Positions 4,226 to 16,326 of a DNA stretch of 64,000 nt are shown piece after piece. The DNA comes from Desulfobulbus sp. (GTDB lineage: Bacteria; Desulfobacterota; Desulfobulbia; Desulfobulbales; Desulfobulbaceae), in assembly GCF_031280615.1 (NCBI RefSeq), contig NZ_JAITGO010000001.1; one strand, given 5' to 3'. Under the pieces are notes generated by a model, which had not been told where the DNA came from, did no database searches, and worked only from the letters and a program-made list of their open reading frames with translations. A program made the position numbers and the translations under genes. How positions within the stretch are numbered: the first letter of the stretch is position 1; every line of letters begins with the position of its first letter.

Positions 4226-5815
<1,590 letters not shown>

Positions 5816-5920
5816 GTCGGTGCGGTGTTGGGCCTGGGTGTTTTCGGGTATGCCGCGCAGGGTGTCGCGCTATCGATTGCTGGCGCGTGTCTTCCGGCGA
5901 ATTCTGCGGTCTCGGAGCAT

Positions 5921-5948
5921 TCAAAAAAAATGGGCCGGAAACCGGCCC
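5921..5948 (-). terminator. intrinsic terminator on the minus strand (GGGCCGG-TTT-CCGGCCC followed by A + T8), 117 nt upstream of the prfC start
   Basis: The plus strand reads tcaaaaaaaatgggccggaaaccggccc. On the minus strand this is a 7-bp GC stem followed by a U8 tract. Confidence 0.6.
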
Positions 5949-6173
5949 AGGTACGTGCTCGCGGACTGCGCGGCAACCATACAGCATGCGACGCAATTTG
6001 TCCATTCGTCATTCTTTCTGCGCTCCGGAGCTGCGTGCCGTCGAGGGCACCGCGCATGGCGATGACAAGAAAGGGATGACAAGGGGAAAAAAGAAATGGT
6101 CAATTGATCCATATTGCGTATCCTGAAAGTAGCGCGGCCCGCGCCTCCTCTCCACCTCCACAACCCTGTGCCC

Positions 6174-7118
6174 ATGTCTCTGCAGATATTCGATGTCGAT
6201 CAGCTTCTTCCGGATCCGGATCTGGATGGATTCAGGCAAAATGCGCCTGACAAATGTTTGTTCGTCGGGGAAAGCCGTTGCGGCATATGGTTTGCCCGTG
6301 CAGGAAGCAATGGGGAAAACTATGGCGTAATCGGCCATTATGCCGCCCGGGACGGCCGACAGAGCCAAGAGTTGCTGGCAGCGGCCTGCGACCTCCTGCG
6401 GGATGGCGGTTGCACCGCTGTCTATGGGCCGATGGATGGCAACACCTGGAAATCGTACCGGTTCGTCACTTGGTCGAACGGTTCGCCGTCCTTTCTCATG
6501 GAACCGCGGAATCCATCGCAGTGGCCAGAATATTGGCGCCAATCCGGTTTTGTTCCCAGCCACGAATATATTTCCACCCTGGTCACCGATCTCGCCTCGG
6601 TTGATCCAAGACTGGCAAAAGCGCGGACGCGGCTGCAGGAGGCGGGCATTACCTGGAGGCCGGTCGATCTCGGCCGGTTTGAGGACGAGCTGAAGCAGGT
6701 GTACCGGCTGTCCTTGGCGGCCTTCAAAAAAAATGTCCTTTATACCGAAATCGACGAAACAACCTTCCTGCGCCAGTATCTTCCCTTTGCCGGCAAAATC
6801 GACGCCGGATATGTGCTCCTGGCGCACGATGCGGAAGCCCGTTGCTGCGGTTTCGTCTTTGCCATCCCCGACCTGCTGCAACTGCAACAGGGCTCGTCAG
6901 TGGACCGTTTGGTCATCAAGACCCTGGCCGTGCATTCGAACAGAAGCATTGCGGGCCTCGGTGCGGTACTGGTGGACGAAGTCCAACGGACGGCGGGAAA
7001 AAACGGCCTCACGTCGGCAATCCACGCCTTGATGTATGCAGGCAATGTTTCAGCCAATATCGGCAAGGGCGGCACCCTGCTCCGCCGCTACGCCCTCTTT
7101 GGCAAGGCCCTGGCATGA
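6174..7118 (+). CDS. GNAT-fold acyltransferase-like protein (first gene of the seven-gene operon)
   Basis: ORF 6114..7118. I prefer the ATG at 6174 over the TTG at 6114. The C-terminal half (LVIKTLAVHSNRSIAGLGAVLVDEV) resembles the acyl-CoA-binding beta4-alpha3 segment of GNAT enzymes. Its stop overlaps the next gene's start (ATGA at 7115-7118). Confidence 0.6.
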   Translation: MSLQIFDVDQLLPDPDLDGFRQNAPDKCLFVGESRCGIWFARAGSNGENYGVIGHYAARDGRQSQELLAAACDLLRDGGCTAVYGPMDGNTWKSYRFVTWSNGSPSFLMEPRNPSQWPEYWRQSGFVPSHEYISTLVTDLASVDPRLAKARTRLQEAGITWRPVDLGRFEDELKQVYRLSLAAFKKNVLYTEIDETTFLRQYLPFAGKIDAGYVLLAHDAEARCCGFVFAIPDLLQLQQGSSVDRLVIKTLAVHSNRSIAGLGAVLVDEVQRTAGKNGLTSAIHALMYAGNVSANIGKGGTLLRRYALFGKALA

Positions 7119-8665
7119 ACGTGGTTGAACTGTTGGCGGCACAGGCCGAACAGCGTGGCAACCAGCTGGCGCTTTGCCATGGCCGCGACAGCATCACCTT
7201 CCGTAACTTGCACGAGCAATCCTGCCGGGGCAGTGCCATGCTGAGGTCGCTGGGCTTTGAACCGGGGGATGCGGTTCTGGTTTTCGTGCCCATGTCGATC
7301 GATCTCTATTGCATCCTGCTCTCGTTGTGGCGATTGGGGATGACGGCCATGTTCGTCGATCCCTCCGCCGATGCGAAAACCATGCGGGAGTGCTGCGCCA
7401 GAGCGAAACCCAGAGGGTTCATCGGCACGCCGCTTGCCCAGTTGCTGCGGCTGAAAAACCCGGCGCTCCGCAGTCTTGCTCCTGTCCTGACCACCGGGTG
7501 GCTGCCGTTTCACGCTTGCTGGTCCGCTGCTTCCCGCTGGGCGATAGACTCCGGCTCGGTTGCCTGCAAACCGGAGACCCCGGCACTCATCACCTTCACT
7601 TCCGGGACAACCGGCACCCCCAAGGGAACCGTGCGCACCCATGGATTCCTCTTGGCTCAGAAACGTGTTCTTGAAAAAACGCTCAAGCTGCAAGCAGGCA
7701 AGGCAGACTTGGCAACCCTGCCCATCTTTGCCCTGATCAACCTGGCCTGCGGCGTCACCACCATTATTCCGAAAACGAGCCTGAAACATCCGGCCAAGGT
7801 ATCGACCCAGCCTATCCTTGCGGACTGCGCCCGATTCCGGCCGGCTACCGCGGTGGCTTCTCCCGCCTTTTTCGCGTGTCTGCTGGAAGATCCCCGGCAT
7901 GTGCAACTGCGTTGTCTTGAATCCTTGTATACCGGTGGCGCCCCGGTTTTTCCCGGCTTGCTCAGAAAACTGGCAACAGCGCTGCCCGGTACGGCCATAA
8001 TCGCCGTTTACGGCAGCACCGAGGCCGAACCCATTGCCGAACTGCACTCCAGCGATATCAGCGACGACGATTACCGCCGCATGGCAGAGGGTGGTGGCCT
8101 GCTTGCCGGAACAGTGGTGGAAGCAATCGACTGTCGCATCATGGAGGAGCGCTGGGGCAGGGAACTTGGCCGCCTGAGTGCGGCGGAGTTCCGCGGTCTG
8201 GTCCGATCGAGCGGGGAGGTCGGCGAGATCGTCGTCCAGGGCGAACATGTGCTCACCGGCTATCTGGATGGGATCGGCGACGGGGCCAATAAATTTTCGG
8301 TTGAAGGCTCTGTGTGGCATCGCACCGGCGATCTCGGCTATTTCGATGCGAATGGACGCCTCTGGTTGCTGGGACGCTGTGCTGCGGCCATACGGGATGC
8401 CAGGGGAGTCGCCTATCCCTTTGCCCTGGAAACCGCGGCAAGGCAGTTCGAGCAGATAACCAAGGCGGCCTTCTGCCAAGTGGGGGAAGACAGGGTGCTG
8501 GCCATCGAAACCCGTCTTCCGCCCGACGAAGCCGATAGGTTGCTCGGACCTCTCATCAAAAGGTTTTGCCTCGATCGTCTTGTCCTCGGCACCATCCCGA
8601 TGGACAGACGGCATAATGCCAAGGTCAACTATCCGGAACTGCGTAAACGGCTCGCATCATCTTGA
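7115..8665 (+). CDS. AMP-dependent synthetase/ligase (fatty-acid CoA ligase-like adenylating enzyme)
   Basis: Start MNVVELLAAQAEQRG; AMP-binding core ITFTSGTTGTPKG; YGSTEAEP; HRTGDLGYFDANGRLWLLGR; C-terminal IPMDRRHNAKV. Confidence 0.85.
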   Translation: MNVVELLAAQAEQRGNQLALCHGRDSITFRNLHEQSCRGSAMLRSLGFEPGDAVLVFVPMSIDLYCILLSLWRLGMTAMFVDPSADAKTMRECCARAKPRGFIGTPLAQLLRLKNPALRSLAPVLTTGWLPFHACWSAASRWAIDSGSVACKPETPALITFTSGTTGTPKGTVRTHGFLLAQKRVLEKTLKLQAGKADLATLPIFALINLACGVTTIIPKTSLKHPAKVSTQPILADCARFRPATAVASPAFFACLLEDPRHVQLRCLESLYTGGAPVFPGLLRKLATALPGTAIIAVYGSTEAEPIAELHSSDISDDDYRRMAEGGGLLAGTVVEAIDCRIMEERWGRELGRLSAAEFRGLVRSSGEVGEIVVQGEHVLTGYLDGIGDGANKFSVEGSVWHRTGDLGYFDANGRLWLLGRCAAAIRDARGVAYPFALETAARQFEQITKAAFCQVGEDRVLAIETRLPPDEADRLLGPLIKRFCLDRLVLGTIPMDRRHNAKVNYPELRKRLASS

Positions 8666-8711
8666 ATCGTCCTTCCTATGCCGCCCAATCCAACTTCATC
8701 CCGGTGATTTT

Positions 8712-9974
8712 ATGACTCAGAATTCACATAAAATTGAGCAACTCGCTGCAACTCTCCTCGGCGAACGATCGCAGGAGGAGGTCCGAAAACGACTCGAGGC
8801 GGACACCAAAACGCCGTATGCGCGGCTGGCCAACGTGAAAGGAACCGCCCCCGAGGCGTTACGCAGCCGCTGGGAAGATCTGCTCGGCCAAGGTCGGCCG
8901 ATCCCGTCGGCCCTCTACAACGGCGAAGACATGGATGTCTATGGCGCCAACATCGAAAACTGCATCGGCACGGTCAAATTGCCGGTCGGCATTGCCGGGC
9001 CGCTTCGGGTCAACGGCAGTTTTGCCAAGGGCGACTATTACCTGCCCCTGGCCACCACCGAGGCCGCATTGGTGGCAAGCTACCATCGCGGTGCCGTGAT
9101 TCTGTCGAAATCGGGCGGATGTTCGGCGGTGATCCTCGCCGAAGGAGTGACCCGTTCTCCGGGCTTTGCCTTTGCCTCCATCGGCGACATGTTGATTTTC
9201 GCCCACTGGGTGCTGACCCATAAGGACAAGTTGAAAGAGGTGGCGGCAACGACCACCAGGTTCGGTGTCCTCCAGGATATCCGCTTTGCGGCCCAGGGCA
9301 GCCATCTCTATCTCTTGTGCGATTTCTTCACCGGAGACGCTGCGGGGCAGAACATGGTGACCATCGCGACCCAGGTAATCTGCGATTTCATTATCGAACA
9401 GGCGCCGGTCGCCCCACAATACTGGTTTGTCGAGGCCAACGCCTCGGGCGACAAGAAGGCCACCGCCCAGTCCTTCTCCACGGTCCGGGGAAAAAAGGTG
9501 GCGGCCGAAGCGGTTATTCCGGGGAAATATATCGAACGTTTTCTTCACACCACCCCGGAGAAAATGGTGCGGTACTGGCAAATGTCCGCTCTGGGCGGGG
9601 TCATGACCGGTACGATCGGCGTCCAGGGACACTATGCCAACGGTCTTGCCGCCCTCTTCATCGCCTGTGGTCAGGATGCGGCCTGCGTGGCCGAGGCGGC
9701 GGTCGGCATCACCCGGTTTGCCATTCTTGAGGACAATGGACTCTATGTCTCTGCCACGCTGCCCAACATGATTGTGGGCACCGTGGGCGGCGGCACCAAG
9801 CTGCCGAGCCAGCAGGCGGCGCTGCAACTCATGGGACTGGACGGAGCCGGTCATGCCAGGGCCTTTGCCGAGGTCTGCGCCGCCGCCGCCCTGGCCGGGG
9901 AAATTTCCATAATAGGATCCATGGCCGCAGGCGATTTTACCAAGGCCCACGACGATCTCGCCAGGAAACGATAA
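8712..9974 (+). CDS. class I HMG-CoA reductase homolog (soluble, no membrane domain)
   Basis: ENCIGTVKLPVGIAGPL, TTEAALVAS, DAAGQNMV, SGDKKA, RGKKVAAEAVIP, GTVGGGTKLPSQ and C-terminal FTKAH match the class I HMGR catalytic Glu/Asp/Lys/His motifs. Confidence 0.85.
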   Translation: MTQNSHKIEQLAATLLGERSQEEVRKRLEADTKTPYARLANVKGTAPEALRSRWEDLLGQGRPIPSALYNGEDMDVYGANIENCIGTVKLPVGIAGPLRVNGSFAKGDYYLPLATTEAALVASYHRGAVILSKSGGCSAVILAEGVTRSPGFAFASIGDMLIFAHWVLTHKDKLKEVAATTTRFGVLQDIRFAAQGSHLYLLCDFFTGDAAGQNMVTIATQVICDFIIEQAPVAPQYWFVEANASGDKKATAQSFSTVRGKKVAAEAVIPGKYIERFLHTTPEKMVRYWQMSALGGVMTGTIGVQGHYANGLAALFIACGQDAACVAEAAVGITRFAILEDNGLYVSATLPNMIVGTVGGGTKLPSQQAALQLMGLDGAGHARAFAEVCAAAALAGEISIIGSMAAGDFTKAHDDLARKR

Positions 9975-10056
9975 CCTCGAGCGACCACGCACCATCTCCC
10001 CGCGAAAACACCCCTGCGGTACGCGCCGCAAGGTTCATGGATGAGGAATATTGACT

Positions 10057-11013
10057 ATGTCGTCCCCCCTTGTCGAACAAAAGATTGAGGAACGGAATCT
10101 ACCCTTTTACCGTCGATTCTGGATCTATCAGAAGGAACGTTTCCCGCTGGTGGCGCATACCCCGCTGATCCTGGCCTTCAGCTATTGCGCGGTCTCGATT
10201 TCATCGAGGCTTAGGGACGGAGTTTGGCCGCAATGGCCGTCGGCGGCGGTCGCCTTTCTTACCTGCCTCCTCTTTTTTCTGCAGTTGAGAATCGCGGATG
10301 AATTCAAGGATAATGCGGAGGATGCCCGATTCAGGCCGTATCGGCCGGTGCCGCGCGGATTGGTCGCACTCGGCGAGCTCGGCCGGCTTTTTGTCCTGGC
10401 CGGGCTGCTCCAGTTGGCGGCGGCGCTTTGGTGGAATCCGAAGCTGGTCATTCTGTTGCTCGTCACCTGGGGCTATCTTGGGGCCATGAGCTTTGAATTC
10501 GGGATGCGGAACTGGCTCAAGGCCCATCCCATCGTCTACCTCTGGACCCACATGCTGATCATGCCGCTCATCGATCTCTATGCCTCCTCGACGGACTGGA
10601 TGGTCGCGGGCATGGTCTTCCCCCCCCATGGCCTGCTCTTTTTCCTTGCTGCCAGCTTTTTCAACGGCGTTGTCATCGAGATCGGCAGAAAAATCAGGGT
10701 CCCTTCCCAAGAGGAAGAGGGGGTGGAAACCTATTCCTTCCTTTGGGGCTGTTCCAAGGCGGTGTTGGTGTGGTGGCTGATGGTGCTGATGACCGCTGTT
10801 TTCGGTTGCTTAACCGCATGGAAGGCGGACATGTTGGCCGCGATCGGCCCATTGCTGCTTGTGGCCGCCTGCGGCTGCGGCATCGTGGTTGCGCTTTTTC
10901 TCCGTCGACAAACGGAGAGGCTGGCGAAGATGTTCGAGCCTGCATCCGCCCTCTGGACCCTCTGCCTGTATCTATCGCTAGGCATTCTGCCGGGAGTGAT
11001 CGCCCATGGATGA
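10057..11013 (+). CDS. UbiA-superfamily prenyltransferase (integral membrane)
   Basis: Multi-TM protein with an Asp-rich motif (RIADEFKDNAEDARFRPYRPVPRG), similar to the first UbiA motif plus RPxPxG. GAGGA lies 10 nt upstream of the ATG at 10057. A TTG at 10051 is an alternative start. Confidence 0.8.
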   Translation: MSSPLVEQKIEERNLPFYRRFWIYQKERFPLVAHTPLILAFSYCAVSISSRLRDGVWPQWPSAAVAFLTCLLFFLQLRIADEFKDNAEDARFRPYRPVPRGLVALGELGRLFVLAGLLQLAAALWWNPKLVILLLVTWGYLGAMSFEFGMRNWLKAHPIVYLWTHMLIMPLIDLYASSTDWMVAGMVFPPHGLLFFLAASFFNGVVIEIGRKIRVPSQEEEGVETYSFLWGCSKAVLVWWLMVLMTAVFGCLTAWKADMLAAIGPLLLVAACGCGIVVALFLRRQTERLAKMFEPASALWTLCLYLSLGILPGVIAHG

Positions 11014-13606
11014 AATGATACTGTTCTCGCGGCAAAACATGCGCCTGGAGCATGTGGGCGGCAAGGCCGCCGCGCTCCATGCGCTGCAGGGACTGCCCAT
11101 TCCCGAATGGTTTGCCCTTACCCCGGCTGCCTTCATGATCAGCGGCTGTATGGAAAACGACCCATCCCGGTGGCGGGTGAACGAGGCGCTCCGGGTGCAG
11201 CTCAACCAAGCCCTTGCACAACTGTCCGATGAGGATGGCTGTTTTGCGGTGCGGTCATCGGCGATTGATGAGGACGGGCAGGGGTTGAGTTTTGCCGGCC
11301 AGCTCGACTCTTTTCTGGGAGTCGCCAAAACCGAGGTGGCCGACAGGGTCGCCGATGTTTGGCGCTCGGCGTTCTCAGAGCATATCAGGGCCTATCGGGC
11401 CGAGCATGATCTCGGCGGATGCGTGCCGCCCGCCGTGGTGGTGCAGCGCATGATCGACGCCCAATGCGCCGGTGTCTCCTTTGCCGTCGATCCGATAACC
11501 GGCAATTGGGATCATGCCCTGGTCTCATCGGTCTGGGGGCTTGGCAGCAGCCTGGTCGATGGCGAGCTCGATGGCGATACCTACCGCGTGGATCGAAGCG
11601 GCCGCATCGTGGAGAAACAGGCCGGCCCGAAGCCCTTTGGCGTGTATCTTCGGGACAGGGTGCCACAGAAGCAGGAACACGACCAAGAAAGAGCCGAGGC
11701 CTATTCGCTCGACGACCGGATGGCGGCGGAAATTGCGGCCTTGGCCAGATTTTGCAGCCAACGACGCGGATGTCCCCAGGATATTGAGTGGGCCTATGAA
11801 AAAGGGCGTCTCTACCTGCTTCAGTCGCGTCCCATTACCAGTCTCGGCCGGGTGCCCGATCCGGGGGGCAAGCTCAACATTTGGGACAATTCCAATATCG
11901 CCGAATCCTACGGCGGGGTGACCACGCCGTTGACGTACAGCTTTGCCCGTTCGATTTACGAGGAGGTCTACCGACAGTTTTGCAAGATCATGGGGGTTCC
12001 GCGGCATGTCATCGAGGCCAACCGGGAAACCTACCGGGGCTTGCTCGGCTTGATGCATGGTCGGATGTACTACAACCTGACCAACTGGTATCGTTTGCTG
12101 GCTTGCTTCCCGGGATTTTCCATCAACCGCGGTTTCATGGAACAGATGATGGGGGTGCGCAAGGAGCTTGGCGAAGAGTTGCTTCAACTCATCCCCAAGC
12201 CCAGGGCAAACCGTTTGCTCAGCCTCCTGTACCTAGGCAAGGCCCTGGCCGGGATGGGACTGAGCTATCTGCTGCTGCCCCGGAAGATAAAGCGATTCTA
12301 TACCCGGCTGGACAGCGCCCTGGCCAGACCGGAGATTCCGTTGTCCGCACAGCGGGCCGATGAGCTGGTCGCCTTGTACCGGCAACTCGAGGAACGGTTG
12401 CTGCTGCGATGGGATGCGCCCTTGATCAATGATTTTTTTGCCATGATCGCTTTTGGCCTGCTGTCCAAACTCTGTCGGTCCTGGTGCGGCGACGGACACG
12501 GCACCTTGCAAAACGATCTTGTGGGAGGTAGTGGCAGGGTAGTCAGTGCCGAGCCGGCCAAACGGGTTGCCGAACTGGCCGCCTGCATCCGGGGTGACAG
12601 GGAGGCCATGGATTTGTTCCAGATGGGTCCGGCCGCGGATATCCTGGCCTATCTCGACGGCAACGAGACTATGGGCCGCCTTTTTCGCCAATATCTCGAA
12701 AGATTCGGTGACCGCTGCATCGACGAGCTGAAATTGGAGAGTGTGCCCCTGCATGACGATCCCTTGCCGCTGCTGCGGGCCATCGGCCACTTTGCCGGCA
12801 GAGAGGGGCGGCAAGAGGGCAACCAGGCCGCGGATGCCCGGATGGAAGCGGAACTGCGAGCCTTGGAGATGCTGGCTCAAAGCTCTCTGCGCCGGCAAGT
12901 GTTCACATTCATCCTCAAACATGCGCGGGCGCGTGTGGAGGACAGGGAGAACCTCCGTTTTGAGCGGACCAGGCTTTTCGGTCGGGTGCGGGAGATCATG
13001 GCTGAGCTCGGCAAAAGGTTTGCGGCCCTGGGCATCCTCAAGGACCGCAACGATATTTTTTACCTGGAAAAGGATGAAATTCTCGGCTTTGTCGAAGGGT
13101 TTGCCTCCTGCCCCGATCTGGGGGCCATCGCCGAGGTGCGCAAACGCCGTTTTCAGGGCTATGCCACCCTGCCGCCCATTGCCGATCGGTTTCAAACCCG
13201 GGGCATGGTGTTCGTCGGCAACGATTTTTCCATCGCCGATGACGAGCAGCCGTTTTTTGCCGATGAGCAGGGGAAGCGGCAAGGCATAGGGTGCTGCCCG
13301 GGCATTGTGCGTGGCAGGGTTCGTGTGGTCAGGGATCCCAGAGGAGTGGAGTTGCCCGCTGGCGCCATACTTGTGGCGGAACGGACCGATCCGGGATGGA
13401 TCATGCTCTTTCCGGCGGCATCCGGGTTATTGGTGGAACGGGGCAGTCTTCTTTCGCATTCGGCCATTGTCGCCCGGGAATTGGGGCTGCCCGCGGTTGT
13501 GTCGGTGCCGGGGGTGACAAGCTGGCTGCAAAACGACGATCTGGTTGAGCTGGATGGCGGTACCGGTTTAGTGAGACTGTTGCAGGGAGAAGAAGACCAT
13601 GTCTGA
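11006..13606 (+). CDS. PEP-utilising dikinase-like protein: N-terminal PPDK/PEP-synthase ATP-grasp domain plus C-terminal swivel phosphohistidine domain
   Basis: GGKAAALHALQGLPIPEWFALT at the N-terminus. The C-terminus carries GIGCCPGIVRGRVRVV...ILVAERTDPGW...ERGSLLSHSAIVARELGLPAVV (catalytic His motif). The start overlaps the UbiA stop by 8 nt. Confidence 0.85.
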   Translation: MDEMILFSRQNMRLEHVGGKAAALHALQGLPIPEWFALTPAAFMISGCMENDPSRWRVNEALRVQLNQALAQLSDEDGCFAVRSSAIDEDGQGLSFAGQLDSFLGVAKTEVADRVADVWRSAFSEHIRAYRAEHDLGGCVPPAVVVQRMIDAQCAGVSFAVDPITGNWDHALVSSVWGLGSSLVDGELDGDTYRVDRSGRIVEKQAGPKPFGVYLRDRVPQKQEHDQERAEAYSLDDRMAAEIAALARFCSQRRGCPQDIEWAYEKGRLYLLQSRPITSLGRVPDPGGKLNIWDNSNIAESYGGVTTPLTYSFARSIYEEVYRQFCKIMGVPRHVIEANRETYRGLLGLMHGRMYYNLTNWYRLLACFPGFSINRGFMEQMMGVRKELGEELLQLIPKPRANRLLSLLYLGKALAGMGLSYLLLPRKIKRFYTRLDSALARPEIPLSAQRADELVALYRQLEERLLLRWDAPLINDFFAMIAFGLLSKLCRSWCGDGHGTLQNDLVGGSGRVVSAEPAKRVAELAACIRGDREAMDLFQMGPAADILAYLDGNETMGRLFRQYLERFGDRCIDELKLESVPLHDDPLPLLRAIGHFAGREGRQEGNQAADARMEAELRALEMLAQSSLRRQVFTFILKHARARVEDRENLRFERTRLFGRVREIMAELGKRFAALGILKDRNDIFYLEKDEILGFVEGFASCPDLGAIAEVRKRRFQGYATLPPIADRFQTRGMVFVGNDFSIADDEQPFFADEQGKRQGIGCCPGIVRGRVRVVRDPRGVELPAGAILVAERTDPGWIMLFPAASGLLVERGSLLSHSAIVARELGLPAVVSVPGVTSWLQNDDLVELDGGTGLVRLLQGEEDHV

Positions 13607-14699
13607 TACGGAAATTGCCGCCAAGGCCTCCTTCGATGCGATCCGCTACGCCCAATGCTGGGAAGATGCCGACATCCTCCTGCAAGGCCTGGATGTTCAG
13701 GAGGGCGACGTCTGTCTGGGCATAGGCTCTGCCGGCGACAACTGCCTCTCGCTGTTGACCCGCCATCCCAAAAGGGTGATCGCCGTCGATATGAATCCGG
13801 CCCAACTGGCCTGCATAGCCTTGCGGGTCGCCGCTTTCAAGTGCCTTGAGCACCATCAGCTTCTCGAACTCGTTGGCTCGCGGCCAAGCGAGAGAAGGGT
13901 GGCGCTTTTTGAACGATGCACAATCCATCTTGCCGATGAATACCGTGAGTTTTGGCAAAACAACCTTGGCGCCATTGCCGGAGGGATCGGAGATGCGGGT
14001 AAATTTGAACGGTATTTCGCCATGTTCAGGAAATATGTGATTCCCCTTGTCCATCGATCCGCCACGGTCAAGCACTTGTTGGAGGGAGGTGATCGAGAAC
14101 GCTGCGCCTTGTTTTACGACACAACCTGGAACAACCTGCGCTGGCGCATGCTTTTCCGCCTGTTTTTTTCCCGCTGGCTGATGGGCAAGCTGGGCAGGGA
14201 CCCTTCGTTTTTCGCCTATGTCGAGGGATCGGTTGCCGACCGGATACTTGCCCGGACCCGACATGCCCTGCGCGAACTCGATCCCGGCAAGAATCCCTAT
14301 CTTCATTGGATCCTGACCGGAGGGCATGGCGATGCCTTGCCGCACGCCCTGCGGGAAGAGAACTTTGCGACCATCAGGGACAACATCGACCGGCTGGAAA
14401 TCCGCCGGGGAACCGTGGAGTCCGTGCTGGCCGCGGAGGGATCCAGGAGTGTGGATCGATGCAATCTCAGCGATATTTTTGAATATATGTCCGAAGAGAC
14501 GGCCACCTCGGTACTCGCCCAGGTGGTTGCCGCCACCAGAAGCGGCGGACGGCTCGCCTACTGGAACATGCTCGCCCCGCGCTGCTGCCCGAGCGAGTGG
14601 AACGACAGGGTGCGGCGCAGGCACGATCTGGGCCAGCGGCTGCTGTTGGAAGACAAGGCGTTTTTTTATTCGGCCTTCATAGTTGAAGAGGTGCTGTGA
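13599..14699 (+). CDS. BtaA/DUF3419-like SAM-dependent 3-amino-3-carboxypropyl transferase homolog
   Basis: IRYAQCWEDADILLQGL...VCLGIGSAGDNCLSLL...VIAVDMNPAQ...LSDIFEYM is the pattern I associate with the DUF3419/BtaA family. The start overlaps the previous stop by 8 nt. Confidence 0.75.
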   Translation: MSDTEIAAKASFDAIRYAQCWEDADILLQGLDVQEGDVCLGIGSAGDNCLSLLTRHPKRVIAVDMNPAQLACIALRVAAFKCLEHHQLLELVGSRPSERRVALFERCTIHLADEYREFWQNNLGAIAGGIGDAGKFERYFAMFRKYVIPLVHRSATVKHLLEGGDRERCALFYDTTWNNLRWRMLFRLFFSRWLMGKLGRDPSFFAYVEGSVADRILARTRHALRELDPGKNPYLHWILTGGHGDALPHALREENFATIRDNIDRLEIRRGTVESVLAAEGSRSVDRCNLSDIFEYMSEETATSVLAQVVAATRSGGRLAYWNMLAPRCCPSEWNDRVRRRHDLGQRLLLEDKAFFYSAFIVEEVL

Positions 14700-16024
14700 A
14701 TCCCTGGTGGGGTATTGTCCTGGTTCTCGGCAGCTTGACCCTTCTGCTTGCCGGTTGTCGGTACGGTGGCCAGAGGTTCTCTCTGTCGGCGGAACTGACG
14801 CGCAAGATGGTGCATATGGGAATGGGGCTGATCTGTACGCTCTTCCCCCTCGTGTTCCGGACAACCTGGCCGGTTTTTTTGCTGGCTGGAACCGCTGTTG
14901 CCGCTCTTCTTGTCGTCCGGTCTTCGACAGTTCTCCGCACAACGATCGGTTCTTCCTTGCATGGCGTGGAACGTTCGTCCCTGGGGGAAATCTTTTTCCC
15001 GGTTGCCGTGGCCGCAGTCTGGTATTTTTCCCTTGAAAAACCGCTCTATTTCAGCCTCTCCGTCCTCGTGCTGACACTCGCCGATGCCTTTGCCGCTCTG
15101 GTCGGCACGAAATACGGGCAACAGCAGTACACCACCATGGAGGGCTATAAAACATGGGAAGGGAGTTTCATTTTTTTTGCCGCGACCTTCCTCTGTATCC
15201 ATATCCCCCTGCTGTTGCTGACAACCACCGGCAGGGCCGAGAGCCTGCTTATCGCCTTGCTCATCGGCATTTTGGTCATGATTGTTGAAGCCGTTGCCTG
15301 GCGCGGTCTCGACAATCTGTTTATTCCCCTCTGCGTCTGCATTCTGCTCAATGTCTACGACAGTTTCAGCGCATCGCAGATTCTGGTCCGAATTGCCTTT
15401 ATCCTGCTCATCATCGTCATCCTCTTTTTCCTTCGTCCCCGCACCAAACTCGATGACGCCTCGATCCTTGGTGCCAGCCTTGTCACCTATCTGGCAGTCA
15501 CTGCTGGCAACTGGCAATGGGCCGTTGCCCCTGTTCTGGTCTTTGTTAACTATTTGCTCCTGGGAAAAGCGAAGGACGCGGTTGCGGAACGGATTCACAA
15601 TATCCATGCGCTCCTGGCAGTTACCCTTCCCGGTCTGTTGTGGTTGTTGCTTTACTACCGCCAGCAGCAGCAGATATTCTTTTTCAGCTACAATCTGGCC
15701 TACATGGCCGAGCTGGTCTGCATATTCATTGCCCAGTGGGCCTTCGAGTTCAAGGAGAGAAGCCTTGTCCGTATTACTCTGAAAAGCAGCTTGTTGAGTT
15801 TTGTCATGATTATGGGGCCCTGCTTCGTTTTCATCTACAGGGAGGTGGGCTCTGCCGGCATTGCCCTTGCCTTTGTCTGTGCCATGATCAGCGGTCAGCT
15901 GTTTCGTCTCATGCAACCGCAGATACGAGACTGTCCGTTGGACAGCCAACGGTTTTTCCGGCAGGGCTTCATTGGTTTTGGTATCTCGGTGGTCCCATGG
16001 GTTGCCATGGTTTTTTTCAACTAA
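14696..16024 (+). CDS. polytopic membrane protein; the N-terminal half is dolichol/phytol kinase (CTP-transferase-1 superfamily)-like
   Basis: TRKMVHMGMG, LADAFAALVGTKYG and KTWEGSFIFFAATF resemble the SRKxxH / GDxxAxxxGxxxG / KxxEGS motifs of polyprenol kinases. About 200 further aa of TM helices follow. GTGA start/stop overlap with the upstream gene. Confidence 0.6.
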   Translation: MNPWWGIVLVLGSLTLLLAGCRYGGQRFSLSAELTRKMVHMGMGLICTLFPLVFRTTWPVFLLAGTAVAALLVVRSSTVLRTTIGSSLHGVERSSLGEIFFPVAVAAVWYFSLEKPLYFSLSVLVLTLADAFAALVGTKYGQQQYTTMEGYKTWEGSFIFFAATFLCIHIPLLLLTTTGRAESLLIALLIGILVMIVEAVAWRGLDNLFIPLCVCILLNVYDSFSASQILVRIAFILLIIVILFFLRPRTKLDDASILGASLVTYLAVTAGNWQWAVAPVLVFVNYLLLGKAKDAVAERIHNIHALLAVTLPGLLWLLLYYRQQQQIFFFSYNLAYMAELVCIFIAQWAFEFKERSLVRITLKSSLLSFVMIMGPCFVFIYREVGSAGIALAFVCAMISGQLFRLMQPQIRDCPLDSQRFFRQGFIGFGISVVPWVAMVFFN

Positions 16025-16154
16025 AGGGTTTTCCTGCCGCAGAAGGAATATGCACCCGGAAAGGCTTGGCTGCTCAAGTGAGTTCCCTGAAGAGAGCGGG
16101 TGAAAAGCGGGGGTTGGGAGGGCAAGCTGTCATTTTGCGGGAAAAGAACGAAAA

Positions 16155-16203
16155 AACCGCCGCAACTCCCTGGTTGACGAGGAGTTGCGGCGGTTTCGTT
16201 TTC
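16155..16203 (+). terminator. hairpin terminator after the seven-gene operon
   Basis: aaccgccgcaactcc...ggagttgcggcggtt (15-bp stem) followed by tcgtttt. Confidence 0.55.
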
Positions 16204-16217
16204 CTGCTGCTGTAAAC

Positions 16218-16243
16218 AAAAAAAAGGCCGCATTGCTGCGGCC
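16218..16243 (-). terminator. intrinsic terminator downstream of tRNA-Asn
   Basis: The minus strand reads GGCCGCAGCAATGCGGCC followed by T8. Confidence 0.7.
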
Positions 16244-16250
16244 TGATATC

Positions 16251-16326
16251 TGGCTCCCCGGGAGGGACTCGAACCCCCGACAAGGCGGTTAACAGCCGCC
16301 TGCTCTACCAACTGAGCTACCGAGGA
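16251..16326 (-). tRNA. tRNA-Asn (anticodon GUU)
   Basis: The reverse complement folds as a cloverleaf: TCCTCGG-TA-GCTCAGTTGGTAGAGC-A-GGCGG CTGTTAA CCGCC-TTGTC-GGGGGTTCGAGTCCCTC-CCGGGGA-GCCA. Confidence 0.9.

Follow-up and report, generated by a model that had tools for sequence, protein, structure and literature searches.

A seven-gene block in the window (the whole 64,000-nucleotide stretch of DNA that was analysed) has, in our judgement, about an even chance of being a self-contained, horizontally mobile operon that encodes the complete pathway to an undescribed lipid. The likeliest product is prenyl- or alkyl-linked and carries an N-acylated, SAM-derived amino-acid head of the homoserine type. 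The genes, g1 to g7, and their flanks are as follows.

4226-5815, minus strand: prfC, the divergent flank (863 bits against a cut-off of 473)
5816-6173, no strand assigned: divergent prfC-g1 intergenic region, the presumed operon promoter region
6174-7118, plus strand: g1, putative tandem-GNAT N-acyltransferase, 314 aa (Pfam NMT, 26 bits against a cut-off of 25)
7115-8665, plus strand: g2, AMP-forming acyl ligase, 516 aa (Pfam AMP-binding, 170.6 bits)
8712-9974, plus strand: g3, class I HMG-CoA-reductase paralogue, 420 aa (Pfam HMG-CoA_red, 357.6 bits)
10057-11013, plus strand: g4, divergent UbiA-superfamily membrane transferase, 318 aa (Pfam UbiA, 40.3 bits against a cut-off of 34.2)
11006-13606, plus strand: g5, rifampin-phosphotransferase/PigC-type ATP-grasp and swivel-His phosphotransferase, 866 aa (PPDK_N, 177.5 bits; PEP-utilizers, 79.2 bits)
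13599-14699, plus strand: g6, DUF3419 protein, a distant BtaA paralogue, 366 aa (Pfam DUF3419, 229.8 bits)
14696-16024, plus strand: g7, polytopic membrane protein, 442 aa, N-terminal half polyprenol-kinase/CdsA-like (homologue names and a motif)
about 16146-16202, plus strand: intrinsic-terminator-like hairpin, operon end (-36.5 kcal/mol, z = -7.35)
16251-16326, minus strand: tRNA-Asn, beyond the terminator hairpin

The seven reading frames are co-directional (6174-16024), and direct reading of the sequence bears out the layout given in a first-pass annotation, including the overlaps, the gaps and the bounds set by prfC on one side and the hairpin and tRNA-Asn on the other. The junctions are an ATGA overlap for g1/g2 (7115-7118), ATGGATGA for g4/g5 (11006-11013), ATGTCTGA for g5/g6 (13599-13606) and a GTGA overlap for g6/g7 (14696-14699); 46 nt separate g2 from g3 (8666-8711) and 76-82 nt separate g3 from g4 (9975-10050/10056). 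That annotation started g1 at a TTG at 6114; the public gene call on L001 makes the ATG at 6174 likelier and corrects the starts of g3 and g4 to 8712 and 10057. Its family calls were right and are refined here, with Pfam finding every named family but that of g7. Its count of three membrane or lipid products falls to two integral membrane proteins, g4 and g7, as judged by hydropathy. The presumed promoter region holds no ORF with a family match and no Rfam match, a sigma-70 scan of it finds nothing exceeding shuffles, and its minus strand has a terminator-like hairpin at 5931-5949. At the downstream end, none of 200 shuffles folds as well as the hairpin, in which A/U pairs lengthen a G+C-rich stem of about 14 base pairs and UUUCGUUUU comes next.

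Stronger evidence for a functional unit comes from other genomes. Starting from g6, 80 independent loci were retrieved. The full set of seven genes occurs, on a single strand and in no more than 13 kb, at 45 of them; contig ends truncate 23 of the other 35. It is this synteny, not the overlaps, that argues for more-than-chance grouping. A lack of synteny in related genomes would have counted against the first-pass annotation; instead, complete copies are syntenic across about 15 phyla, and others occur in Brevibacillus laterosporus and on a Roseinatronobacter plasmid of 136 kb. Estimated median intergenic gaps are about 0 nt across loci, and comparison of the neighbourhoods reveals no conserved neighbour outside the seven genes. 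The spread is patchy and includes plasmids, as would be expected no less of an accessory metabolite than of a membrane lipid.

Gene order divides the block into two modules, [g1 g2] and [g3 g4 g5 g6 g7], which appear mainly as 3456712 (23 loci) or 1234567 (16 loci). The ligase gene g2 always adjoins g1, at the front or back of the block, with an estimated median gap of -4 nt (57 loci). In some loci g2 is present although g3 is missing, and the reverse holds at one locus. This order disfavours the first link of the route originally proposed, from the ligase to the HMG-CoA-reductase homologue, because g2 travels with g1 and not with g3. Furthermore, g3 is absent from four internal loci (L021, L024, L041 and L075), so the reductase is not indispensable in cis.

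The core module opens with a reductase that keeps the catalytic machinery of class I HMG-CoA reductase, as evidenced by the common fold family and by invariant E559, K691, N755, D767 and H866. Also invariant are R590, D690, K692 and R568, the last of which we take to be a CoA contact. On the other hand, both HMG-carboxylate ligands of HMG-CoA reductase are changed in all 54 orthologues: the S684 position is Glu, and the residue at the K735 position is never Lys and is usually hydrophobic (Met in 38 orthologues, Val in 9). The substrate pocket is remodelled around conserved catalytic residues. Unlike a mevalonate-pathway enzyme, g3 scores 309.6 bits against the equivalog model TIGR00533, under its cut-off of 441.8, and has no mevalonate genes nearby.

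The g4 protein has about eight hydrophobic segments and conserved acidic motifs, of which the first is invariant (DEFKDxx[ED]DxxxRPYRxVPRGL) and the second reads ExGRKxR....EExGVxTY. Profile comparison places it nearest, among solved structures, to chlorophyll a synthase (9sau) and DGGGP synthase (6m31), both at E ~3e-4; these relatives O-prenylate pigments or lipids. UbiA-type chemistry normally requires an allylic or oxocarbenium-forming diphosphate, and this need reduces the number of g3-derived alcohols usable as donors.

Two candidate phosphotransferases follow. The g5 protein resembles Rph, PigC and RedH in its ATP-grasp domain, middle substrate-binding domain and C-terminal swivel-His domain and in lacking a PEP/pyruvate TIM barrel. 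It additionally carries an Rph_4th domain, its top PDB match is the Listeria rifampin phosphotransferase (5fbs/5hv1, E 3e-55), and all 62 orthologues compared keep the swivel histidine, H818, which lies within LLSHSAIVARE. It reaches no NCBIfam equivalog cut-off and differs from these enzymes in scoring far under the Rph, PigC and RedH ones (269 bits against 999 for the Rph model) and in residing in a conserved operon with membrane enzymes. The g7 protein matches no Pfam or NCBIfam model, and its earlier description as polyprenol-kinase-like is weakened, given that it draws on source names (“phytol kinase” at JGI, “diacylglycerol/polyprenol kinase family” at NCBI), a motif and sub-threshold DUF92 matches in 13 of 30 homologues. 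The motif, LADAxAALVG..YG...K[ST]WEG, aligns to Escherichia coli CdsA in hhalign at a probability of 1.6%. The AF2 model of g7 is all-helical (pLDDT 88.9), the sequence has at least 12 hydrophobic segments, and no structural match was found in the PDB. Alternatively, g7 could be a CTP-dependent cytidylyltransferase of the CarS or CdsA kind.

The nature of g4 and g7 raises the unlikely alternative that the cassette salvages isoprenoids, converting a prenoic acid or prenol through the acyl-CoA, alcohol, monophosphate and diphosphate for re-attachment by UbiA, as a bacterial equivalent of the plant route in which VTE5 and VTE6 salvage phytol for chlorophyll synthase or HPT, with g6 and g1 modifying the acceptor. 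The phytol-kinase names, the weak matches to DUF92 (the VTE6 family) and the proximity of g4 to chlorophyll synthase are in its favour, and g2, g3, two phosphotransferases and g4 supply exactly the number of steps needed. However, gene order ties g2 to g1 rather than to g3, most hosts are non-phototrophs without an obvious phytol source, and salvage gives no necessary role to g6 and g1, which are among the best-conserved genes.

The g6 protein is 55-62% identical across phyla. Its membership of DUF3419 stands, and it has the motifs YxQxWED, GSxGxN and VDxNP in common with a BtaA from a btaA-btaB operon, the operon type of betaine-lipid (DGTS) synthesis. Calling it BtaA-like is nevertheless too strong, since its identity to the DUF3419 member of such an operon from Rhizobium leguminosarum is only 25%. 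Also unlike DGTS synthesis, the block contains no BtaB-type methyltransferase, and g6 is always accompanied by an acyl ligase and by the tandem GNAT. These companions suggest N-acylation over N-trimethylation, possibly on a non-diacylglycerol acceptor.

The accessory pair consists of g1 and g2. The Pfam match of g1, to the myristoyl-CoA-binding domain of NMT, is marginal. Its AF2 model (pLDDT 91.5) has a predicted fold that resembles amine N-acyltransferases, with Foldseek returning the tandem GNATs 5kga (glucosamine N-acetyltransferase), 1ozp (MshD) and 2wpw (clavulanate) at E 1e-9 to 1e-12. The C-terminal GNAT half contains an AGLG stretch in which G261, L262 and G263 are invariant. By its scores, g2 is an orphan AMP-ligase: among NCBIfam models it comes closest to PRK09274, with 325 bits where 478 are required, ahead of OleC-type models (205 bits), and its top PDB matches reach only about 65-70 bits.

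It is very improbable that the block is a variant of a known pathway, be it mevalonate synthesis with g3 as a true HMG-CoA reductase, DGTS synthesis with g6 as BtaA or rifamycin resistance with g5 as Rph. The Pfam families fit, and homologues of g6 are labelled the DGTS enzyme by JGI. Against this stand the loss of S684 and K735 and the sub-threshold score of g3, the absence of further mevalonate genes and of BtaB in or near all loci, and the distance of g6 and g5 from BtaA and Rph. The first-pass annotation could not map the block to a characterised pathway, and this view is upheld: no block protein meets an NCBIfam equivalog cut-off, the PGAP names are generic, and the curated models, PGAP names and searchable full-text literature hold no description of the seven-gene cassette.

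For the favoured lipid pathway, we infer the substrates, the step order and the product. In the core module, g3 would form a primary alcohol by reducing a CoA thioester that is not HMG-CoA, plausibly an acyl-CoA of the cell's own pool that is of the 3-hydroxyacyl type or bears an amine. The membrane protein g7, if a kinase, and soluble g5, converting ATP to AMP and Pi via phospho-His818, may phosphorylate lipid hydroxyls, so that either the donor becomes a lipid diphosphate or the acceptor is phosphorylated. Next, g4 would make an O-prenyl or O-alkyl bond, much as chlorophyll synthase uses phytyl-PP and DGGGP synthase uses GGPP, and g6 may transfer a SAM-derived 3-amino-3-carboxypropyl group to a free lipid hydroxyl. 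In the accessory module, g2 would activate a fatty acid, and g1 would attach it to the amino group just introduced. An embedded transporter may export the product in some proteobacteria. A linear scheme is awkward in having two phosphotransferases and no phosphatase.

That the product is a lipid, as was first proposed, gains indirect support from the MMPL/sterol-sensing-domain transporters embedded in the block at three loci (L028, L031 and L049) and from the O-prenylating relatives of g4, although its class is part of our reading. A possible but clearly less probable reading makes it a low-abundance specialised metabolite (a prenylated signal, pigment, antibiotic or siderophore-like conjugate) and not a bulk membrane lipid. 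On this view an acid would be activated and reduced, the PigC/RPH-type enzyme would phosphorylate or activate it, UbiA would prenylate it, and decoration would follow. The HGT-like spread fits this, as do a cytochrome P450 adjoining the block in five loci, a carbamoyltransferase inserted at one, and the action of PigC, RedH and Rph relatives on small hydrophobic natural products. However, PKS, NRPS, terpene cyclase and regulator genes are all absent, and an invariant gene set with high, uniform conservation is atypical of diversifying secondary metabolism. Moreover, the transporter type is typical for lipid export, and the solved relatives of g4 and the source names of g7 point to long-chain prenyl lipids.

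Taken as an undescribed lipid pathway, the cassette shares parts with several known systems. Like the archaeal ether-lipid core, it would have a reductase-made alcohol backbone, a UbiA enzyme related to DGGGP synthase for the O-prenyl bond and a membrane protein resembling the CdsA/CarS superfamily, but it lacks G1P dehydrogenase, GGGP synthase and a CDP-alcohol phosphatidyltransferase; its reductase is an HMG-CoA-reductase paralogue that would act on a thioester, and its head group would be SAM-derived. With phytol salvage (VTE5, VTE6 and ChlG or homogentisate phytyltransferase) it has in common a membrane polyprenol-kinase-like protein, a UbiA enzyme near chlorophyll synthase and two phosphoryl-transfer steps ahead of prenyl transfer. 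Its second phosphotransferase, however, is a soluble RPH/PigC-type enzyme and not a DUF92 protein, g7 lies under all family thresholds, its hosts differ as noted above, and phytol salvage has no counterpart of the HMG-CoA-reductase paralogue, DUF3419 protein, GNAT or ligase. The ebo cluster (eboA-F) is likewise a compact UbiA operon transferred across many phyla with an unassigned product, but by Pfam only the UbiA member is common to both, the cassette being without TatD, sugar-phosphate cyclase and xylose-isomerase-like genes. Finally, N-acyl aminolipid synthesis (OlsB/OlsF and N-acyl amino acid synthases) likewise combines an acyl-CoA-dependent GNAT-type N-acyltransferase with an amino-acid head group; g1 differs from these enzymes in being a tandem GNAT with an MshD/glucosamine N-acetyltransferase-like fold and its own paired ligase.

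The decisive result for the seven-gene cassette is its synteny across phyla. The seven ORFs on the plus strand of this region of the window, their junctions and their boundaries are as follows.

4226-5815, minus strand: prfC, the divergent upstream boundary (863 bits against a cut-off of 473)
6174-7118, plus strand: g1, tandem GNAT
7115-7118, plus strand: g1/g2 junction, shared ATGA
7115-8665, plus strand: g2, AMP-ligase
g2 to g3, plus strand: gap of 46 nt
8712-9974, plus strand: g3, HMG-CoA reductase paralogue
g3 to g4, plus strand: gap of about 80 nt
10057-11013, plus strand: g4, UbiA-superfamily protein
11006-11013, plus strand: g4/g5 junction, 8-nt overlap
11006-13606, plus strand: g5, Rph-type phosphotransferase
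13599-13606, plus strand: g5/g6 junction, 8-nt overlap
13599-14699, plus strand: g6, DUF3419 protein
14696-14699, plus strand: g6/g7 junction, shared GTGA
14696-16024, plus strand: g7, polytopic membrane protein
about 16146-16202: downstream hairpin (-36.5 kcal/mol, z = -7.35)

Relatives of g6 were collected by a degenerate-pattern scan with one genome per species, which gave at least 587, and the best 80 loci were kept and searched with all seven window proteins. All seven genes lie on one strand within 13 kb in 45 of these best 80 of at least 587 loci, and contig ends truncate 23 of the remaining 35. The gene-neighbourhood comparison proposed in the first-pass annotation therefore finds the block recurring complete in other genomes. 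By record title, the hosts belong to Planctomycetota, Verrucomicrobiota, Gemmatimonadota, Rhodothermales/Bacteroidota, Pseudomonadota (including Legionellales), Desulfobacterota, Chloroflexota, Acidobacteriota, Armatimonadota, Cyanobacteria, Deinococcota, Vulcanimicrobiota, Eisenbacteria and Actinomycetota. The tight packing is shared as well, with an estimated median intergenic distance of about 0 nt for g1-g2, g4-g5, g5-g6 and g6-g7. In the window, the junctions reported by the first-pass annotation (ATGA, two 8-nt overlaps, GTGA, and gaps of 46 and about 80 nt) match the sequence, with gene starts in the public annotation at ATG 6174 for g1, 8712 for g3 and 10057 for g4.

Two further hosts carry the full set in settings consistent with horizontal transfer. 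One copy lies on a 136-kb plasmid of the alkaliphilic alphaproteobacterium Roseinatronobacter sp. S2 (L083, NZ_CP121116.1), where g3 spans the record origin and is hence absent from the PLSDB gene table, and where PGAP names are generic. The other is in the low-G+C Firmicute Brevibacillus laterosporus B9 (Bacillota; L084:5166-15023, NZ_CP011076.1), in which G+C content rises from 35-41% in the flanking DNA to 44-47% within the block (about 5-10% richer). The operon in the window has a G+C content unremarkable against the remaining sequence, and its host is related to Desulfobulbus, whose proteins share 76-78% identity with g6. On L051, a contig assigned by binning to a Halobacteriales archaeon, g3-g7 and g1 are present as far as the contig end, which reflects either mis-binning or transfer into Archaea.

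Regulatory signals around the operon are sparse. The upstream sequences of the window operon and of seven other loci gave no riboswitch or other known RNA, and a promoter scan of the window performed no better than shuffles. Between the starts of g1 and prfC, upstream of prfC, the minus strand has a G+C-rich hairpin with a run of eight T after it (5931-5949). No gene is apparent that this hairpin would terminate, and it may be a leader/attenuator or mark the end of a small transcript. At the other end, a tRNA-Asn gene lies on the minus strand beyond the operon hairpin and is directly followed by a second terminator-like hairpin and T-run (16225-16244, minus strand). Back-to-back terminators thus separate the converging operon and tRNA gene.

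No further conserved neighbour gene was found in 66 loci. Most of the extra ORFs inside clusters were set aside as frameshift artefacts of MAGs. A cytochrome P450 gene adjoins the cassette in five of the 66 loci (e.g., L055:15045-16424), and a NodU-type carbamoyltransferase is encoded between g1 and g2 at L077:2026-3513; both may be lineage-specific tailoring steps. Such occasional neighbours, together with a patchy, plasmid-borne distribution and relatives of g5 in natural-product pathways, would fit a low-abundance prenylated specialised metabolite, a product that we consider rather unlikely. In three proteobacterial loci, an MMPL/RND transporter gene lies in or abuts the cassette (L031:7633-10005, L049:7854-10001 and L028:3723-5990). 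The L031 and L028 transporters also match a sterol-sensing domain, and that of L049 matches MMPL alone. Transporters of the MMPL/sterol-sensing-domain type move lipids. Because an MMPL transporter is embedded in three loci, the genomic context hints that the cassette product is an exported lipid.

Gene order divides the cassette into two modules. The commonest orders among the best 80 of at least 587 loci are 3-4-5-6-7-1-2 (23 loci) and 1-2-3-4-5-6-7 (16 loci); g1 and g2 thus change place together with respect to g3-g7. In four internal loci (L021, L024, L041 and L075; Anaerolineales, Acidimicrobiia-like and Holophagaceae), g3 is missing and g2 is kept. These loci have g1, g2, g4, g5, g6 and usually g7, and g3 was not found within 10 kb; its function may be encoded elsewhere or replaced there. 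Conversely, a Microcoleus locus has g3-g7 with g1-g2 not nearby. The pairing, the g3-less loci that keep g2 and the Microcoleus locus together argue that the ligase g2 serves the GNAT g1, not the reductase g3. The first-pass annotation had proposed that g2 activates the same acyl unit that g3 reduces, a link that runs against all three observations. The g1-g2 linkage is also at odds with a prenol or prenoic-acid salvage route, which would account for five genes and leave g6 and g1 unexplained; we regard salvage as improbable.

Structural comparison likens g1 to N-acylating enzymes. Its AF2 model is confident (pLDDT 91.5) and matches tandem GNATs in Foldseek with probability 1.00, including glucosamine N-acetyltransferase, the mycothiol synthase MshD and the clavulanate tandem GNAT. 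These tandem GNATs act on amines. G261-L262-G263 is invariant in the C-terminal half of g1, in keeping with an acyl-CoA-binding loop in one of the two GNAT folds, and the match to Pfam NMT is marginal (26 bits, cut-off 25). Its partner g2 has an AMP-binding domain (170.6 bits, Pfam) and misses all equivalog cut-offs. In the PDB its closest matches are to oxalate-, 4-coumarate- and fatty-acyl-CoA ligases, at only about 65-70 bits, and by these matches g2 is a predicted AMP-forming ligase without a close characterised relative.

The reductase paralogue g3 appears to retain the chemistry of HMG-CoA reductase with a changed substrate. It matches Pfam HMG-CoA_red at 357.6 bits (gathering score 27) and is closer to class I (TIGR00533, 309.6 bits) than to class II (TIGR00532, 55 bits). 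The TIGR00533 equivalog cut-off of 441.8 is missed both by the window protein and by that of L070, a related locus (343.2 bits). The window protein was aligned with 53 orthologues from related loci (54 cluster orthologues in all) and with the human and Methanothermococcus enzymes, and residues are given in human HMGR numbering anchored at the C-terminal KSH motif. The catalytic residues E559, K691, N755, D767 and H866 are invariant in all 54 cluster orthologues, as are R568, R590, D690 and K692. At the position of S684, by comparison, every one of the 54 has Glu, and the K735 position is occupied by Met (38), Val (9) or, in the other 7, different and mostly hydrophobic residues. The human and Methanothermococcus enzymes retain Ser and Lys at these positions, which we take, from human HMGR crystal structures, to bind the terminal carboxylate of HMG. 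Because the catalytic residues are invariant and S684 and K735 are replaced, g3 should still reduce a CoA thioester to an alcohol, with a substrate other than HMG-CoA. Loss of thioester chemistry was considered and ruled out: the "AAGH" histidine of g3 falls in the variable H861 column, and the H866 column is His in 54 of 54. No other mevalonate-pathway gene is a conserved neighbour outside the seven in the 66 loci.

The UbiA-superfamily protein g4 has about eight hydrophobic segments and matches Pfam UbiA at 40.3 bits (gathering score 34.2). Its first Asp-rich motif is invariant (D81-E82-x-x-D85-x-x-x-D89 ... R93-P-Y-R96-x-V-P-R-G101) and aligns with NDFYDRDID...YRPIPSG of chlorophyll synthase (superfamily pattern NDxxDxxxD plus RPxxxG). 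In place of DxxxD, the second motif reads E208-x-G-R211-K212-x-R ... E219-E220-x-G-V-x-T-Y; its acidic residues are Glu, and RK stands where the chlorophyll synthase motif has its first ND. No characterised subfamily model (UbiA, MenA, ChlG/BchG, DGGGPS, PRK13592) is reached: the best, PRK13592, gives 74-86 bits against a cut-off of 443, and BchG gives 19.5 against 212. With a profile of 20 g4 orthologues, the sole solved relatives are chlorophyll a synthase and DGGGP synthase (E about 3e-4). Both of these enzymes form O-prenyl bonds with C20 diphosphates.

The phosphotransferase g5 is built like rifampin phosphotransferase: it consists of PPDK_N (ATP-grasp), Rph_4th (middle) and PEP-utilizers (swivel-His) domains alone, and the PEP/pyruvate TIM barrel is absent. 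The top PDB match is Listeria rifampin phosphotransferase (5fbs/5hv1), and all of 62 orthologues share the swivel histidine H818. The equivalog cut-offs are missed for Rph (269 against 999), PigC (281 against 1300), RedH (310 against 1350) and PEP synthase, and the best model, PRK06241.2-2, gives 713 against a cut-off of 883.

The DUF3419 protein g6 (229.8 bits, Pfam cut-off 28.2) has low similarity to BtaA of btaA-btaB operons. It was calibrated against a btaA-btaB type operon found by a plasmid search on pSK03 of Rhizobium leguminosarum, in which the DUF3419 gene overlaps that of a 224-aa class I methyltransferase. The two DUF3419 proteins are 25% identical over 333 residues; g6 belongs to a separate clade of the family, with conserved short motifs. 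No BtaB N-methyltransferase gene is present in the window operon or is a conserved neighbour in the 66 loci, and a DUF3419 profile search of the PDB gave nothing significant. Two cyanobacterial loci (L016:3652-4800 and L064:9408-10568) have cluster-type DUF3419 genes 54-57% identical to g6; the other six genes and a BtaB-like neighbour are absent from the retrieved flanks of 4-10 kb. Because this neighbour is absent, these loci are of no use for calibration against true BtaA. Membership of the cassette in a mevalonate, DGTS or rifamycin-resistance system is contradicted by the tests on g3, g6 and g5, respectively, and is scarcely credible.

In the window, the membrane protein g7 has no Pfam or NCBIfam match, and its homologues are named "phytol kinase" (JGI) or "diacylglycerol/polyprenol kinase family" (NCBI). 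DUF92 (the VTE6 family) is matched below the gathering score in 13 of 30 homologues, with a best E-value of 2.6e-4. The family has 613 representatives at 50% clustering (E <= 1e-30). A motif, D-x2-A-x3-G-x3-G ... K-[ST]-x-E-G, is invariant (D130, A133/A134, G137, G141, K152, E155, G156, S157) and is paired by hhalign with the equivalent region of E. coli CdsA, but with a probability of 1.6% and E of 0.032. The AF2 model is all-helical (pLDDT 88.9), with at least 12 hydrophobic segments; Foldseek found no relative in the PDB (best E 0.046, TM <0.26), and a profile search of the PDB gave nothing significant. The protein seems to be bipartite. Residues 1-220 contain every invariant residue as well as the CdsA/kinase-like motif, and the weak DUF92 matches of the homologues P0160, P0167, P0170 and P0475 lie in the C-terminal half and cover the first 119 positions of the profile; the architecture may be permuted or composite. 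In another database protein (P0420, 596 aa), the C-terminal part of a DUF3419 domain is joined to a g7-like domain, either as a real g6-g7 fusion or through a frameshift across the 4-nt overlap.

The most economical reading of the cassette is a lipid pathway, with substrates that we infer from the protein families. The reductase g3 would convert a non-HMG acyl-CoA to a primary alcohol, and g7 and g5 would phosphorylate lipid hydroxyls, the latter through phospho-His818 with conversion of ATP to AMP and Pi by analogy with Rph. Alternatively, g7 may act as a CarS/CdsA-like cytidylyltransferase. The prenyltransferase g4 would use a lipid diphosphate as donor to form an O-prenyl or O-alkyl bond, g6 would transfer a SAM-derived group, probably 3-amino-3-carboxypropyl, to a lipid hydroxyl, and g2 and g1 would N-acylate the resulting amine. 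An explicit route that uses all the genes could start with reduction of a 3-hydroxyacyl-CoA to a 1,3-diol, which would then receive a phosphate at position 1 and a prenyl group at the 3-O position; dephosphorylation, addition of an O-homoserine head group and N-acylation would follow.

A more specific form of the lipid reading is that the cassette makes a new class of bacterial membrane lipid by an "archaeal-style" logic, with a non-glycerol backbone, O-prenylation and an N-acylated homoserine head; we hold this only tentatively. Here g3, as an acyl-CoA-to-alcohol reductase, would supply the backbone, e.g., a long-chain 1,3-diol or amino-alcohol. The backbone would be phosphorylated and then O-prenylated by the DGGGP-synthase/chlorophyll-synthase-like g4, and the SAM-derived homoserine head group would be added and N-acylated. 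If this is true, the cassette could be a source of orphan aminolipids or ether lipids in environmental lipidomes, because it occurs in about 15 phyla.

If the product is a lipid, the cassette would represent a new and widespread way in which bacteria make membrane or envelope lipids. It would give a first role to a large clade of "HMG-CoA reductases" that automatic annotation mislabels as mevalonate-pathway enzymes, and a role to a major DUF3419 clade mislabelled as DGTS synthase. It would also place an Rph-type enzyme in primary or lipid metabolism, which bears on the origin of that resistance enzyme family, and offer a genetic marker with which to interpret orphan lipids from sediments, soils and saline settings. 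Cultured hosts include Brevibacillus laterosporus B9, Desulfosarcina variabilis, Roseinatronobacter sp. S2 (plasmid) and Aquisalimonas asiatica. At 10 kb the cassette is small and self-contained, and since cultured organisms carry it, the question of its product is directly testable.

Several lines of evidence set the cassette apart from described systems. None of the seven proteins falls under an NCBIfam equivalog (June 2026 release). The nearest models, PRK13592, PRK09274 and PRK06241.2-2, were rejected as assignments; the orthologues of Legionellales, Gammaproteobacteria and Desulfosarcina all score below their cut-offs. A full-text search of the literature outside subscription-only sources found no paper that describes this gene set, and the apparent matches were a flanking gene in the cly cluster and DOI strings. 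Moreover, phytol salvage with ChlG, BtaA/BtaB, the archaeal DGGGPS-CarS core, mevalonate and Rph/PigC each have at most two to three of the seven components in common with the cassette. On these grounds, and in agreement with the first-pass annotation, which could map the gene combination onto no characterised pathway, we rate the cassette as lying outside every known pathway.
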